Origin: Bacteroidota bacterium
GTDB taxonomy: Bacteria > Bacteroidota > Bacteroidia > Chitinophagales > Chitinophagaceae
Direction: 5' to 3'
NCBI GenBank assembly: GCA_030706605.1
Contig: JAUZOE010000007.1
Coordinates: 8,729-72,728 of the forward strand
DNA length: 64,000 nt
Part shown: in pieces, positions 49,105-59,743 of the stretch
Numbering within the stretch: position 1 is the first letter of the stretch
How the letters are laid out: the number at the start of each line of letters is the position of its first letter
Notes under the pieces: generated by a model
The model's database searches: none
What the model was told of the DNA's origin: nothing
What the model saw: only the letters and a program-made list of their open reading frames with translations
Program-made: the position numbers and the translations under genes

Positions 49105-50832
49105 TCATTCTGTACCTGCGCGATTTACTTCTTTAATACCTACGTAAAAATTTTCATCCACTTTTATTTTATTAACTCCTCTTGGCACCTCTTGAAATTG
49201 TTGAGTAGGATGAATGAAAATGAGATTCCCCTTTTCATTATAAATTTTTACAGGCATGTTAAAACCATTTATGCAATTACTCCACCGGTAAAAGAGTTTT
49301 CCGTTTACCGATTTATATTCCAGTTCGGGAATTTCGGTGGTACGTAAATACTGGTCAAACACTTTTGAAAAATCAATCCCCGATTTTTTGCTGATATAAT
49401 CTTCAATTTGTTTTGTGGTAACAGTTTGATGATAAAATGTTTGATTCATCCCTCGCAGAATACTTCTGAACAAGTCATCATTGTTGATAATTTGTCTTAT
49501 GATGTGTATCATATTAGCGCCTTTATAATACATATCTCCACTCCCCTCTTCATTTACCCCATAATGTGCTATTATAGGTTTAGCATTACTGATATTTTTT
49601 CTGATACCCACCACATAATCCGTTGCTGCCTGCCTGCCATAGTAATATTCAGTAAAAAGAACTTCGGCATAATTGGCAAACGATTCATGAATCCACATGT
49701 CTGCCAGATCTTTTGAAGTAATATTATTGCCAAACCATTCATGGGCGCTTTCATGAACAATGATAAAATCCCATTTTAATCCCCACCCGCTTTGGGAAAG
49801 ATCATGTTCGCGATAGCCATTCATATACCCGTTTCCATAAGCAATAGCGCTCTGGTGTTCCATTCCAAGGTAAGGAGCATCTACCAGTTTGTAACCATCT
49901 TCATAAAAAGGATAAGGACCAAACCAATATTCAAATGCCTTCATCATTCGTGGCGCCTCTTTAAATTGTTTTTTTGCCTTTGCAAGGTTTGAGTCCAACA
50001 CCCAATAATCCAGGGTTAAATCACCTTTTTCACCTTTGTATATTTCTCCCCAATGCACATATTTACCAATGTAAAAAGAGATGTCATAATTATTAATCGG
50101 ATCCACTACCGCCCAAGTATAGGTACTATTTCCATCACCATCATCTTTAACACTCCGAAGTCTTCCATTACTTACAGTAATCAAATCCGACGGGGCAGTA
50201 AAATGCATTTCAGCGCTATCCGGTTCATCACCCTGGTAATCTTTGCATGGATACCAAACACTGGCACCCAAACCCTGACATGCAACTGCTACCCACGGAT
50301 TTCCTGCTTTATCTTTGGTCCAGATAAGACCTCCATCCCATGGAGCATTTTTAGCAACTTTAGGTTTACCGTGATAATAAACAGTAAAAGAATATGGAGT
50401 TGATTTTGTTTCTTTCACATTATAAACAAGAGGTCGATTTGATTTTTTTAAACTGACAAACCATACATTACCTTCTTTTATAAAACCAAGTTTTTCCCTG
50501 GAAGGTTTTCTTATTCTACTATCCACATCCATTGAAACCAATCCCGATCCATAATCCGCTATCACAGAATCCATAATCAATGGATCCTGTAAATCGATCT
50601 GAAAATAATCAACATGATTTCTATTCAGTTCTTTATAGCTGATAATATTATAACCACTAATACTGCTATCGGGTAAATTAAATTTTACATATAAATCATA
50701 TTTAGTCACATCCCACCAACTTCTTCCGGGACCATTGCTGCCGCGTAATGTATCCGCATGTGTGAAAGATTGCCCGAAAGAAAAATTAAAACCAATCAGC
50801 AATAAATTTAAAACCACGATTATCTTTTTCAT
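49105..50832 (-). CDS. M1 family zinc aminopeptidase (secreted)
   Basis: LGMEHQS exopeptidase motif, HESAHEWFGN (HEXXH), WIHESFANY third ligand, MYYKGA. Confidence 0.92.
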   Translation of the reverse strand: MKKIIVVLNLLLIGFNFSFGQSFTHADTLRGSNGPGRSWWDVTKYDLYVKFNLPDSSISGYNIISYKELNRNHVDYFQIDLQDPLIMDSVIADYGSGLVSMDVDSRIRKPSREKLGFIKEGNVWFVSLKKSNRPLVYNVKETKSTPYSFTVYYHGKPKVAKNAPWDGGLIWTKDKAGNPWVAVACQGLGASVWYPCKDYQGDEPDSAEMHFTAPSDLITVSNGRLRSVKDDGDGNSTYTWAVVDPINNYDISFYIGKYVHWGEIYKGEKGDLTLDYWVLDSNLAKAKKQFKEAPRMMKAFEYWFGPYPFYEDGYKLVDAPYLGMEHQSAIAYGNGYMNGYREHDLSQSGWGLKWDFIIVHESAHEWFGNNITSKDLADMWIHESFANYAEVLFTEYYYGRQAATDYVVGIRKNISNAKPIIAHYGVNEEGSGDMYYKGANMIHIIRQIINNDDLFRSILRGMNQTFYHQTVTTKQIEDYISKKSGIDFSKVFDQYLRTTEIPELEYKSVNGKLFYRWSNCINGFNMPVKIYNEKGNLIFIHPTQQFQEVPRGVNKIKVDENFYVGIKEVNRAGTE

Positions 50833-55585: not shown

Positions 55586-56284
55586 TTACCAGATAGTGAT
55601 CCGGACTCCTGCCTGTGGTATCAGCATAGTTGTTCTCGAATTCTTTTCATCAAAAGAAACGTTCGCATTATTATCAATGTAAGGATTGGTAAGGTAACTG
55701 CTATAAGCGCCTATTAAATAGGCTGCTTTCAATTCAAGCCCGATACCATCGCGCCTGTTCAGGGGAATATCTATTCCACCAGCTAAGCCATAAGCTACAG
55801 CCCAATGCGCTTTGGTAGAATTGGAATAAGAAGAATTATAATCGCTGTAATAGGTGAGACGCTCCACACTTACTGTCGAAAAAAAGGCATTCCAGCCCCC
55901 AATCAAATCAAGAAAGGGTTTTATCTTACCCGGCCTTGAAGATTGTAAACGTGTAACAAACATTAAAGAAAATATATTGCTGGCAGCATCTACTCTAAAG
56001 TCATCATAAAAACCATTGATGTAACCGGAAAAGTATTGGGTAGCCCTGCTCTTTTCCTGCATCCCTAATTCAATACCAAATTTTAATGGTAGATTTTTAC
56101 CAGGCTTGTAAAAAAAATTTGTCCTTAAGCCAAAGCCTGCATCAGGATTTTCATTTCTATAATCCTCCTGGGGCAAGGTCAACTGCGCATCAAATGATAA
56201 TGAAAACTTTTGCGCCAATAAAGATGAATTGATAAAAACAATCAGCAAAAGAGTCAATAAATATTTCATTACTAATTGTATCAT
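55586..56284 (-). CDS. outer-membrane beta-barrel protein of unknown function
   Basis: Signal-like N-terminus, amphipathic strands, KPFLDLIGG, C-terminal QAGVRITIW; start overlaps the msrA stop (ATGA). Confidence 0.65.
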   Translation of the reverse strand: MIQLVMKYLLTLLLIVFINSSLLAQKFSLSFDAQLTLPQEDYRNENPDAGFGLRTNFFYKPGKNLPLKFGIELGMQEKSRATQYFSGYINGFYDDFRVDAASNIFSLMFVTRLQSSRPGKIKPFLDLIGGWNAFFSTVSVERLTYYSDYNSSYSNSTKAHWAVAYGLAGGIDIPLNRRDGIGLELKAAYLIGAYSSYLTNPYIDNNANVSFDEKNSRTTMLIPQAGVRITIW

Positions 56285-56829
56285 TTTTTCAATTTATCAG
56301 CAAACACTTTTTTCAATTTATCCATCTTAGGCTTTATTACAAAATAACAATAAGATTGAGAACTGTGATTTTTATAATAATCGCGATGATAATTCTCTGC
56401 TTCATAAAAATTAGTAAGTGGCTCAATAGCAGTTACAATAGGTGAATCAAAGGCGCCGCTTTTATCTAATTGCTCTTTATATTTTTCCGCTTTTTCTTTC
56501 TGTTCTTCGTTATGATAAAAAATTACGCTCCGGTATTGCGGCCCTTCATCATTTCCCTGCCTGTTGAGTGTGGTAGGGTCGTGGGTACCCCAATACACTT
56601 CTAACAACTCATCAAAAGTAATTTCAGAAGGATCGTATTCTATTCGCAGGCATTCTGCATGGCCGGTATTTTTTTCACACACCTGCTCATAAGTTGGATT
56701 TACAACGTGGCCACCACTGTATCCGCTGGTCACTTTCTTCACTCCTTTCAGTTGCTGAAAAACCGCTTCGGTGCACCAGAAACAGCCATTGGCAAATGTG
56801 GCTATTGCTATATTTTTATTTTCTGACAT
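56281..56829 (-). CDS. msrA: peptide-methionine (S)-S-oxide reductase
   Basis: GCFWCTE active site, SGYSGG, PTYEQVC, HDPTTLNRQGND.GPQYRS, FYEAENYH. Confidence 0.97.
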   Translation of the reverse strand: MSENKNIAIATFANGCFWCTEAVFQQLKGVKKVTSGYSGGHVVNPTYEQVCEKNTGHAECLRIEYDPSEITFDELLEVYWGTHDPTTLNRQGNDEGPQYRSVIFYHNEEQKEKAEKYKEQLDKSGAFDSPIVTAIEPLTNFYEAENYHRDYYKNHSSQSYCYFVIKPKMDKLKKVFADKLKK

Positions 56830-56859: not shown

Positions 56860-56867
56860 CAAAGATA
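56860..56867 (-). promoter_or_regulatory. housekeeping -7 element for msrA
   Basis: TATCTTTG matches TAnnTTTG, 30 nt upstream of the msrA ATG. Confidence 0.6.
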
Positions 56868-57014
56868 AGTTTTGTAGTTTTTTTTATTGATAAAATAATA
56901 TTAACTCGTGCGAACTAAAAAACCAAATTATTACAAAAGCAATGGAGTTTTGAATTAAAAATACGCTCATAACAAATTTGTAACTAAGCAGATTGTATAA
57001 AATAAATAATTCTT

Positions 57015-57043
57015 GTCAGGTTATATAAAACGCTACGACTAAT
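57015..57043 (+). promoter_or_regulatory. putative ECF sigma promoter P1 (upstream of the sigma gene)
   Basis: GTCAGGTT-N13-CGACTAAT; the same motif and spacing recur at 58443. Confidence 0.65.
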
Positions 57044-57302
57044 TATAGAAACACAAAACTTTAGCAAAAGAAAAAAATGATTTTTCCCCTGGCGCTCGTC
57101 ATGAATCTTTCTATTTCTGCAAGTTCCTCCAGGCAAAATCTCTTGATGAGAGAGATGAGAATAATTATATAATCCAGGAAAAATTAACCAGCTTAAAGGA
57201 ATCAAATTTTGAGTAAGTTTGACTACATAAACTTTAAGAGTTTTTCAATTTAATTTATATCGTTTAAACAGGAAGGAAGATAAATCTAAAAAGGAAGTAG
57301 TA

Positions 57303-57890
57303 ATGTATCAAAGTGATCCGGCTATTGTAATTAAATCCTGGGTTGAAAAGTTTTCTGACAAAATGTATTCCTGGGCCTTTTATAAAACCAATAGTAAAGA
57401 AACCGCTGAAGACCTGGTACAGGATACTTTTTTGGCAGCCTATCAATCTTTGGAAAAGTTTGAAGGAAAAAGCAATCCTAAAACATGGCTTTTTGGAATT
57501 CTCAATAATAAAATAGTCGATCATTTTAGGAAGTCTTATCGTAATACTGCCATAAATGAAAGTGACTCAAAACAAAATTCCTCGTCCTCCTTTTTTGAAT
57601 CATTTTTTGATACAGATGGTAAGTGGCTGAAAGAACAGCAACCGCATGATTGGGCAGATGAAGGCGTGAACCTGCTGGATGATGAAGTATTTATTAAAGT
57701 ATTACAGGCTTGTATGAATAATTTACCATCTTCCTGGTTCTCGGCAATCCAGTTAAGATACCTGGAAGAAAAAAAAGGAGACTTGATATGTCAGGAATTA
57801 AAGATCACTAATACTAATTTTTGGCAGATATTACACAGAGCTAAGTTACAGCTTAGAAAATGCCTGGAATTAAATTGGTTTAAAAAGTAG
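57303..57890 (+). CDS. ECF sigma-70 factor (TIGR02943-like, Neisseria sigmaE-like)
   Basis: Region 2 AEDLVQDTFLAA..FEGKS.PKTWLFGILNNKI.D; FFDTDGKW insertion; region 4 ending LHRAKLQLRKCLELNWF. Confidence 0.92.
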   Translation: MYQSDPAIVIKSWVEKFSDKMYSWAFYKTNSKETAEDLVQDTFLAAYQSLEKFEGKSNPKTWLFGILNNKIVDHFRKSYRNTAINESDSKQNSSSSFFESFFDTDGKWLKEQQPHDWADEGVNLLDDEVFIKVLQACMNNLPSSWFSAIQLRYLEEKKGDLICQELKITNTNFWQILHRAKLQLRKCLELNWFKK

Positions 57891-57894
57891 AATA

Positions 57895-58161
57895 ATGAAA
57901 AAAATATTAAACCTGTTAATGCTTTCATGCAAAAAAGCAACGGAGTTGATAGAAAAGGGCTTATTGGTAAGGCTTTCTTTCAGGGAAAAAATACAATTGC
58001 AATTGCATAAGAGCATGTGTAATGCCTGTACAACTTACGAGAAACAAAGCAAAAAAATGGATGAAATCCTTCATAAACATATTCATGATGATAGTACTGA
58101 CTCCTCCGGTATTATTCAAAATGAAGAATTAAAAGAAAAGATCCTAAACAAACTAAAATAG
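57895..58161 (+). CDS. small soluble zinc-binding anti-sigma factor (zf-HC2/ZAS-like)
   Basis: 88 aa; SCKKATELIE...LHKSMCNAC (Hx3Cx2C); 4 nt after the sigma stop; no TM helix. Confidence 0.85.
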   Translation: MKKILNLLMLSCKKATELIEKGLLVRLSFREKIQLQLHKSMCNACTTYEKQSKKMDEILHKHIHDDSTDSSGIIQNEELKEKILNKLK

Positions 58162-58442
58162 CATTAAAATCCTTTAACCATTTCATTGCTGCATACATTA
58201 ATATTAATCACCAGTACTTTTAAAAGAAAATGATTTTTTGCTGACTAAACCATTTTGTAATCTTTGTTCCTGCTACCACCAACTAATTTTATTAGTTCAA
58301 CCCTGATTTTTAAATTCTCACATACTTCTTATGCCTGTTTTTCTTATTTAAAATAATGGCAAAGTTTCTTTTCATGCCCCTGTTCTCCAGGGAACAACAG
58401 TCTTCTTCTTTTTCGATCTGAAAAAATTATTTTCTTCTGTTT

Positions 58443-58468
58443 GTCAGGTTTTATATAATCCTGCGACT
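58443..58468 (+). promoter_or_regulatory. putative ECF sigma promoter P2 (upstream of the DUF302 gene)
   Basis: GTCAGGTT-N13-CGACT, ending 41 nt before the ATG at 58510. Confidence 0.7.
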
Positions 58469-58509
58469 CTTCCTGTATAAAATCATTTATAACAAAAAAC
58501 TTTTCAATC

Positions 58510-58994: not shown

Positions 58995-59030
58995 AAGAGA
59001 GGCGGAAAAAAGTATTTTTCCGCCTCTCTT
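58995..59030 (+). terminator. hairpin/terminator between the DUF302 and membrane-protein genes
   Basis: AAGAGAGGCGGAAAAA-AGTA-TTTTTCCGCCTCTCTT perfect 16-bp inverted repeat followed by ATTTTT. Confidence 0.8.
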
Positions 59031-59059: not shown

Positions 59060-59743
59060 ATGATACAGGATAAAAAAAAATTGGGGATAGTACTGATTGT
59101 TCTTATACTTTCCGGCATTGCACCTAACTTGTTCCCAATTTCTCAAACAGGAACAGCACCCCTTTCTTCTCTTGCAACAAAATTTCTTATTCCTTCGGTA
59201 GTCCTTATTTTTATAATAATCGGCCTTGCTCATTTATTAAAATATACAAACCTGAAAAAACAGATAATCAATTGTATTTTAGCAGGTATGGTGGCCACCA
59301 TTGGATTGGAAATCATCAGGGAGATTGGTTTTAGGCTTGGCGGGATGCCAGGTGATATGCCTAAATTAATGGGAGTTTTATTACTTGACAGGTTTGCTGA
59401 CGGACCTGATTTTTGGTCTAACCTGGCAGGCTGGAGCTATCACTTTTGGAACGGTGCTGCTTTCGGAATAATATTTAGTTTATTATTTGGCAGGGGGAAA
59501 TTGATGACCGGAATATTTTATGGTTTCCTTATTGGTATAGGTTTTATGATAAGCCCCGTAACCAGGACATTAGGAATAGGAACCTTTGGATTGCAATTTA
59601 AAGATGGATACCAGTTTATGATTACGGTTACACTTGCTCATATAGCTTTTGGTGGCATCCTTGGATTCATTATTCATAAAATAAATATCGGGCAACCTAA
59701 TATATTCAAAAGAATCAAAGATGCTTTTATCAATATTAACTAA
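59060..59743 (+). CDS. integral membrane protein with two intramembrane His (DUF1440/DUF2938/DUF6789-like fold suspected)
   Basis: About six hydrophobic helices; GWSYHFWNGAAFG and TLAHIAFGGILG. Confidence 0.6.
   Translation: MIQDKKKLGIVLIVLILSGIAPNLFPISQTGTAPLSSLATKFLIPSVVLIFIIIGLAHLLKYTNLKKQIINCILAGMVATIGLEIIREIGFRLGGMPGDMPKLMGVLLLDRFADGPDFWSNLAGWSYHFWNGAAFGIIFSLLFGRGKLMTGIFYGFLIGIGFMISPVTRTLGIGTFGLQFKDGYQFMITVTLAHIAFGGILGFIIHKINIGQPNIFKRIKDAFININ

Follow-up and report, generated by a model that had tools for sequence, protein, structure and literature searches.

Closest described systems and the locus

The closest characterized homologs of the system described here, sigmaE of Neisseria and RpoE2 of Haemophilus, are extracytoplasmic function (ECF) sigma factors of group ECF13 that are paired with small zinc-binding anti-sigma (ZAS) proteins (PMC7907618), a group since merged into ECF293 (PMC7826278). 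The promoter recognized by Neisseria sigmaE consists of a -35 element GTMAGBWTT, a -10 element CGTCTAAH, a spacer of 12 to 13 nt, and, farther upstream, an A/T tract; six nt past the -10 element lies a conserved A that is the mapped msrAB start (PMC2893595). Haemophilus RpoE2 is induced by HOCl and H2O2, and its regulon includes msrAB and the doxX (hvf) operon (PMC7907618), which makes the copper-binding peptide oxazolin (PMC11252979); both hvf/doxX and msrAB have been established by experiment as targets of the Neisseria and Haemophilus sigma factors (PMC2893595, PMC7907618, PMC11252979). Here, we describe a 64-kb stretch of a Bacteroidota contig (JAUZOE010000007.1; hereafter, the window) in which two copies of a comparable bipartite motif, termed P1 and P2, flank an ECF sigma/ZAS anti-sigma gene pair. 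The best explanation for this sigma factor is that it belongs with Neisseria sigmaE/MseR and Haemophilus RpoE2/HrsE, as a relative from the Bacteroidota (Chitinophagaceae). We place a probability of about 0.73 on the reading that the ECF sigma factor whose gene lies between the two sites recognizes both and that P1, fused to the sigma operon by a deletion, now probably reads into the sigma gene. The overall arrangement is an ordinary regulatory layout. An initial annotation of the window was right as to the kind of element, the sigma factor, and the literature, and overstated its case in speaking of the sigma factor's own promoter and of autoregulation.

In gene organization, the locus resembles sigmaE (RpoE, NMB2144)-MseR of Neisseria meningitidis and N. 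gonorrhoeae, where an ECF sigma gene is likewise followed by that of a small cytoplasmic ZAS anti-sigma protein, and the promoters share the -35 element, the spacer, a CG.CT core of the -10 element, and the upstream A/T tract (PMC2893595). The Neisseria promoter, however, heads a six-gene operon that includes the sigma gene, which constitutes true autoregulation, whereas in the Bacteroidota layout the sigma pair comes first and its targets follow, rather than the sigma gene standing at the end of a target operon. The window, moreover, has a DUF302 gene and a defunct CxxC gene as targets in place of msrAB or hvf. Haemophilus influenzae RpoE2-HrsE shares the ZAS anti-sigma (67 aa in HrsE; PMC7907618) but comes from another phylum and has another local gene set. 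Streptomyces coelicolor sigmaR-RsrA (ECF12) also joins an ECF sigma factor of thiol-oxidative stress to a ZAS anti-sigma and provides the nearest solved relative of the window's sigma factor (SigR; PDB code 1h3l; E = 3e-11), although RsrA is larger than the window's anti-sigma. It belongs to a different ECF group with a different promoter consensus. Bacteroides EcfO-Reo was rejected as a homolog because the anti-sigma type differs, being Dma (dual-membrane-spanning), with a nigD regulon, as against the 88-aa soluble ZAS protein found here.

A duplicated bipartite motif flanks an ECF sigma/anti-sigma gene pair

The elements on which the argument rests are the following.

56996..57011, + strand: A/T-rich tract upstream of P1, putatively UP-element-like in function
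57013..57043, + strand: P1, with -35 ttGTCAGGTTA (57015-57023), 12-nt spacer, and -10 CGACTAAT (57036-57043); 29.8 bits
57303..57890, + strand: ECF sigma factor, 195 aa, Sigma70_r2 and r4_2
57895..58161, + strand: anti-sigma, 88 aa, ZAS motif C12-x25-H38-x3-C42-x2-C45
58421..58433, + strand: A/T-rich tract upstream of P2
58441..58471, + strand: P2, with -35 ttGTCAGGTTT (58443-58451), 12-nt spacer, and -10 CGACTCTT (58464-58471); 31.6 bits
58510..58989, + strand: DUF302 protein with signal peptide (Pfam PF03625), predicted direct target of P2

The sigma factor is a two-domain ECF protein with sigma2 and sigma4 only (PF04542 and PF08281; TIGR02937, 84.7 bits against a cutoff of 42.9), and its best protein matches, at ~70% identity, come from metagenome-assembled genomes of Chitinophagaceae such as Ginsengibacter and Hanamia. 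Its second-best family match, TIGR02943 (Sig70_famx1), reaches 151.6 bits, below the cutoff of 162.2, in a near tie with PRK12520 (151.7 against a cutoff of 255); it is a close outlier of the TIGR02943 hypothetical equivalog and not a member. The anti-sigma gene begins 4 nt after the sigma stop codon. Its product, without an obvious hydrophobic membrane-spanning stretch, carries the Cys/His pattern of the ZAS definition, C/H-x23-26-H-x3-C-x2-C (PMC7907618), and scores 50.7 bits (cutoff, 50) on NCBIfam NF052368 "antisigmaE"; a PDB sequence search with it returned no match.

The motif GTCAGGTT-N13-CGACT has two exact matches in the 64 kb, at 57015 and 58443, both on the + strand. The first copy, GTCAGGTT-ATATAAAACGCTA-CGACT (57015-57040), is intergenic between msrA, on the - strand, and the sigma gene; the second, GTCAGGTT-TTATATAATCCTG-CGACT (58443-58468), lies between the anti-sigma and DUF302 genes, such that the two copies flank the gene pair on its coding strand. 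The scan thus bears out the initial observation of a duplicated motif with identical spacing in both intergenic gaps. The 13 identical positions counted there are real and underestimate the extent of the likeness, as 23/28 positions are identical between 57013-57040 and 58441-58468 (TTGTCAGGTT.TATA.AA..CT.CGACT), while the sequence flanking the copies shows no repeat between them. With up to 2 mismatches, the window yields 3 matches against 0.41 expected from shuffles. The third, at 50457 on the - strand, was dismissed as chance because it has 2 mismatches and lies within a 575-aa open reading frame (ORF). A scan of this kind had been proposed, genome-wide, for regulon discovery; within the window it recovered both known sites and no regulon member beyond them. 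Since the pattern was derived from the two window sites, an independent test must be comparative.

The Neisseria consensus had been given accurately in the initial annotation (PMC2893595), and the claim that the two sites match it closely holds for the -35 element and the spacer. Against GTMAGBWTT, GTCAGGTTA of P1 matches at 8/9 and GTCAGGTTT of P2 at 9/9 positions, with a spacer of 12 nt. The -10 elements depart from it, with P1 (CGACTAAT) matching CGTCTAAH at 7/8 and P2 (CGACTCTT) at 5/8 positions. Placing the start, by analogy with Neisseria, at an A six nt after the 8-nt -10 element predicts a P1 start near A57049, with a ~254-nt leader before the sigma gene, and a P2 start near A58477, with a 33-nt leader before the DUF302 ATG. 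Both predictions fall inside the ranges given beforehand (57048-57052 and 58474-58479).

The motif is conserved in related Bacteroidota loci

We retrieved 80 Bacteroidota loci with an alignment of 21 homologs and searched them first with the strict pattern and then with a two-block weight matrix, excluding hits inside the sigma gene from the site counts; the sigma gene could be parsed in 73 loci, the window's own among them. Cultured relatives with the module include Sediminibacterium magnilacihabitans DSM 22423 (L027), Sphingobacterium alkalisoli Y3L14 (L057), and Daejeonella sp. H1SJ63 (L035). The 80 loci contain 71 such non-internal sites of at least 20 bits, and 572 kb of shuffled sequence gave no site of at least 18 bits. 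The sites follow the consensus aAaaawwtttt-N7-tTGTCAGGtTT-N12-C[G 44 / A 19 / T 3]ACT[a/g]tT, with a family-wide -35 element GTCAGG[T/A]TT. Positions outside the search pattern are kept as well, with T at -1 in 65/66 and T at +8 in 58/66 sites; the T after CGAC (+25) is present in 62 of 66, the TT at +27/+28 is also conserved, and the stretch from -19 to -10 before the -35 element is at least 90% A/T across the 66 related sites.

The motif is directional and nonpalindromic. At 73% of the sites, as against 11% of random positions, an ORF of 50 codons or more has its ATG 30 to 59 nt past the -10 block. This start-codon spacing is that of a promoter, not of an operator or a repeat. In loci with a parsed sigma gene, 57/65 sites lie downstream of it on the same strand, and the motif is linked to the sigma/anti-sigma pair in 52/73 parsed loci from several orders. 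The reading of the two window copies as a chance resemblance or a functionless dispersed repeat could draw on the post hoc definition of the pattern from these same copies. It is, however, practically refuted by the orthologous loci that keep the motif, evidence which is independent of the window, and the unrepeated flanks of the two copies speak against it as well.

As a separate observation, a ~40-nt 5' leader after the -10 element (GTTTGTTTGTAAATCAAATTTTATAAACAATTAAAA) is conserved across orders at promoters of Cys/His-rich proteins and of some DUF302 genes (L037:2420-2460, L039, L055, L056:6650-6687, L075, L080, and L010:5465-5498); the P2 leader in the window retains TGTAtAAAATCA.

Genes preceded by the motif

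The genes behind the motif fall into a small number of recurrent types. DUF302 genes orthologous to that of the window follow it in 11 loci; orthologous promoters precede those of L009-L012, L015, L018, L021, L028, and L029, and the window protein is 76 to 82% identical to those of L011, L012, and L018, which too carry the motif. In 13 loci, the motif stands directly before hvfA of an hvfA-hvfB-hvfC-hvfX set (L014, L016, L027, L031, L035, L036, L038, L043, L044, L046, L047, L048, and L053), where hvfA encodes a KCGExKCG-repeat precursor of a peptide metallophore, hvfB an MNIO enzyme, hvfC a DUF2063 protein, and hvfX a DoxX protein. The set corresponds to the RpoE2-dependent doxX (hvf) operon of Haemophilus (DUF692-DUF2063-DoxX). 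In all of the eight loci for which downstream genes were listed, genes of hvfB and hvfC length follow, in most of them together with one of hvfX length; family assignments were checked in L038 (4985-6967) and L027 (4938-7335, hvfX included). As far as our literature search reached, no Bacteroidota hvf operon was found described together with its regulator. An msrB-msrA pair lies behind the motif in L058. The window itself has no hvf gene in its 64 kb, and neither msrA nor hvf is under the motif there.

Secreted Cys/His-repeat or Met-rich proteins with no Pfam or NCBIfam match stand directly behind the motif in 13 loci, and secreted CxxC thioredoxin-like proteins follow it in 7 loci. The Cys/His-rich secreted proteins are likely periplasmic metal- or oxidant-binding proteins. 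Other genes preceded by the motif encode thioredoxin, AhpC/TSA, CMD, DUF547, DUF6789, and pyridine-nucleotide disulfide oxidoreductase proteins. The claim that a regulon could be predicted from the motif finds nothing beyond the two sites within the window but a coherent set of target genes in the loci of relatives.

The Cys/His-rich proteins are 111 to 153 aa long and show HxCTxAC...AHGEKGHxCxEACKK repeats or Met-rich variants thereof (e.g., L037:2460-2795, L039:3249-3584, L075:4952-5344, L030:5154-5615, and L055:5061-5429). In L037, a DUF6789 membrane protein gene comes after the Cys/His protein gene, and ORFs matched to it by size only (140 to 147 aa) follow in L055, L066, L075, and L080.

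We accept the motif as, very probably, the cognate promoter of this sigma family because its hvf and msrAB targets match those of the Neisseria and Haemophilus factors and because the -35 element and the spacing are shared. Some points weigh against assigning both sites to the sigma factor between them. The third -10 base is T in Neisseria, and is A in 63/66 and T in 3/66 of the related sites; this A is a consistent lineage difference, not noise. On the msrA strand of the window, no motif of at least 12 bits is present. A search of sequencing runs for the locus sequence returned metagenome DNA contigs only and no RNA run. Finally, a paralogous sigma factor elsewhere in the genome could read the same motif.

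The last point belongs to a wider alternative, in which the motif is read by another factor, be it a paralogous ECF sigma or a DNA-binding regulator, and its linkage to the gene pair is coincidental. Bacteroidota genomes encode many ECF sigma factors, and the link between sigma and motif is drawn from sequence. We nonetheless regard this alternative as very improbable, given that the motif accompanies the gene pair across several orders, is oriented and placed at promoter distance from start codons, and agrees with the promoter for which the closest characterized homologs offer experimental support. The housekeeping (sigmaA) promoter of Bacteroidota has a -33 element TTTG and a -7 element TAnnTTTG, a type that the conserved blocks GTCAGG and C[G/A]ACT do not fit. 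A full-text literature search for ECF promoters with GTCAGG/CGAC found nothing relevant.

Origin of P1 and the question of autoregulation

If P1 were the sigma factor's own promoter in the strict sense, as initially annotated, the motif would be expected before orthologous sigma genes. Within the 800 nt before the sigma gene, a site of at least 20 bits on the same strand occurs in just 5/73 parsed loci (the window, L002, L003, L018, and L021), as against 49/73 with such a site downstream; 3/73 have a divergent site driving a thioredoxin-like gene. L017, where sigma was not parsed, has an upstream site of 29.3 bits and L001 a weaker one of 17.3 bits, in both cases ~250 nt upstream of sigma with no gene between. 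Since the upstream motif is present in so few loci, autoregulation is not a family trait; upstream-promoter autoregulation is a minority, lineage-restricted feature. The absence of the motif upstream of most orthologs counts against the word "own" and not against a cognate promoter of the sigma family, the part of the claim that stands.

Comparison with L002 and L003 offers an origin for P1. In these loci, the upstream site precedes a gene for a secreted CxxC protein of 133 to 151 aa, which is followed by a hairpin and then by the sigma gene. The 262-nt interval in the window aligns with the promoter, then with 31 remnant codons of the CxxC gene, and then with a conserved sigma-proximal block; ~400 nt are missing relative to L002/L003, the terminator hairpin (L003:3850-3886) included.

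57077..57172, + strand: 31-codon remnant (signal-peptide end) of a secreted CxxC thioredoxin-like gene, aligning with the 5' end of the 133-aa L003:3414-3815 and of L002:3364-3819
57204..57239, + strand: conserved sigma-proximal block (AAATTTTGAGTAAGTTTGA...TAAACTTTAAGA), shared with L001, L002, and L003

The remnant ATG lies 33 nt past the P1 -10 block, the modal distance. The P1 motif stands 288 nt upstream of the sigma gene, and neither a terminator nor a significant structure was found between the two. The leader (57049-57302) was considered as a riboswitch or structured RNA, and this was rejected in favor of the gene remnant, as it folds no better than shuffles (z = +0.68). An independent assembly (run X3) from a strain ~5% diverged has the same short leader, with 14 substitutions in the interval, 0 of them within 57015-57043 and 9 in 57079-57154; one of these, 57079 G>A, destroys the remnant ATG. 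Because X3 shares the short form and has lost the ATG, the deletion is no artifact and the remnant is not being preserved. We read P1 as a target promoter that the deletion joined to the sigma operon, and read-through from it into sigma would plausibly represent a derived positive autoregulation.

The rarity of the upstream motif tells against such read-through, and so does the hairpin of L002/L003 (14 bp plus a U-run, -17.5 and -16.9 kcal/mol, z of about -5 to -6), which insulates sigma from the upstream promoter in those loci. The zero changes of P1 in X3, compared with ~1.6 expected, are nonsignificant alone and can be called suggestive. These points could be accommodated if P1 were a mere relic, with sigma transcribed from the 57204-57239 block by the housekeeping sigma factor and controlled purely posttranslationally through the anti-sigma, as in most relatives. 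The spacing of P1, which suits the ATG of the dead gene and not that of sigma, would agree with this, as would the presence of the block, possibly a basal promoter of the sigma operon by its conservation. We consider this unlikely, as P1, at 29.8 bits, has stayed intact in front of a decaying remnant ORF, the P1-sigma interval is free of a terminator, and in L001 and L017 the motif is likewise kept ahead of sigma without a gene in between.

Under the preferred reading, in which the sigma factor recognizes both sites and P1 was fused to its operon, the small cytoplasmic ZAS anti-sigma would hold sigma inactive until thiol, oxidative, or metal stress frees it. The sigma-RNA polymerase complex would then bind ttGTCAGGTTt (-35) and CGACTrTT (-10), 12 nt apart, and transcription would begin ~6 nt past the -10 element. 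P2 (58443-58471) would drive the secreted DUF302 gene, with a strong terminator closing the unit. P1 (57015-57043) would ancestrally have been the promoter of the secreted CxxC thioredoxin-like gene upstream of sigma, until the ~400-nt deletion took most of that gene and its terminator. Because the deletion removed this terminator, P1 transcripts probably cross the ~254-nt leader into the sigma and anti-sigma genes, which would amount to a derived positive autoregulation.

A promoter-like element within the sigma gene

The weight matrix also matches inside nearly every sigma gene, ~100 nt before the stop codon; in relatives, the element lies ~465 to 490 nt into the gene (e.g., L023:4479, L056:4464, and L062:4446).

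57790..57818, + strand: intragenic promoter-like element (GTCAGGAA-N13-ATACTAAT), degenerate in the window, 12.0 bits

The underlying peptide, ICQEL-x-I-x-x-TNF of the sigma4 helix-turn-helix, is encoded as ttGTCAGGAAtt-N11-CNACTAAT, with the 13-nt spacing of the motif. Codon choice in it is strongly biased, with Cys TGT in 72/73 (background, 0.66), Gln CAG in 73/73 (0.58), and Thr ACT in 62/69 (0.29) sequences; these columns rank 1st, 2nd, and 4th among 73 conserved degenerate columns, while the neighboring Gln175 and His178 codons are mixed. Scored with a matrix built from noninternal sites only, the element reaches 19.0 bits where synonymous resampling of these peptides predicts 7.3, and 64% of loci fall within their own top 5% of resamples, whereas other gene windows have mean z values of -0.75 to +0.59; the sequences behind these statistics are phylogenetically related. 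A mere coding coincidence, suggested by the lack of G bias at the second -10 base, was dropped after these synonymous-site tests; that base is mostly T, which is rare in true sites. This constraint is most simply read as a deliberately weak, sigma-dependent promoter that lies within the sigma gene and serves the anti-sigma gene. The sigma genes also have further fixed synonymous codons, for which the promoter motif is no explanation: among the 73, these are L38-V39-Q40 (CTG GTG CAG), S57 (AGC), and L67 (CTC), at ~57414-57422, 57471-57473, and 57501-57503 in the window.

A precedent exists in Escherichia coli, where rseA P3, a promoter within rpoE that depends on sigmaE, transcribes the anti-sigma genes only (PMC8595263). 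It is alike in serving the anti-sigma alone from within the sigma gene and differs in its ECF group and motif, as well as in having been mapped, whereas the element here is deduced from synonymous-site constraint and is degenerate in the window. The window copy, with 12.0 bits and ATACT as its -10, is the 4th lowest of 73, and loci with an upstream promoter have a mean internal score of 15.0 bits versus 19.3 for the rest, in a small sample uncorrected for phylogeny. Tentatively, and with more doubt than confidence, one may envisage that in the family an internal promoter for the anti-sigma alone, a pure negative feedback, replaces positive autoregulation and that the lineage of the window switched to positive autoregulation through the deletion, its internal element now decaying.

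Neighboring genes

The remaining features of the region are as follows.

56281-56829, - strand: msrA
58995..59030, + strand: strong intrinsic-terminator-like hairpin, 16 bp followed by a T-run, ending the P2 unit
59060..59743, + strand: DUF6789-like membrane protein, conserved partner of the DUF302 gene

In the window, msrA was rejected as a motif target, as its strand lacks the motif and a housekeeping-type promoter is probable: TATCTTTG at 56860-56867 (minus strand), 31 nt before the msrA ATG, fits TAnnTTTG. Because this element precedes it, msrA appears to lie outside the motif-defined regulon here. The DUF6789-like gene has no motif of its own in the window and could be reached by read-through only, whereas a motif of their own precedes its homologs in L028 and L061.

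Between the anti-sigma gene and P2 lies a 280-nt noncoding gap (58162-58442), in which no gene remnant was detected by TBLASTN. The corresponding position is occupied in L012 by a disulfide oxidoreductase gene and a 109-aa ORF and in L018 by a split oxidoreductase; independent assemblies break off at 58289-58392.

Implications

The analysis provides a promoter model, aAaaawwtttt-N7-ttGTCAGGtTT-N12-C[G/A]ACTrTT, for an uncharacterized Bacteroidota branch of the sigmaE/RpoE2 stress sigma factors, and this model may be used for regulon prediction in any Bacteroidota genome. An ECF promoter is by custom read from the region before the sigma factor's own gene, a shortcut that would fail for most of this family; its success in the window is owed solely to a deletion that brought a target promoter in front of sigma. 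The predicted regulon would tie DUF302, DUF6789, the Cys/His-rich proteins, and the hvf-type operons to one circuit of thiol, oxidative, or metal stress, and would thereby give these uncharacterized families a testable physiological context.

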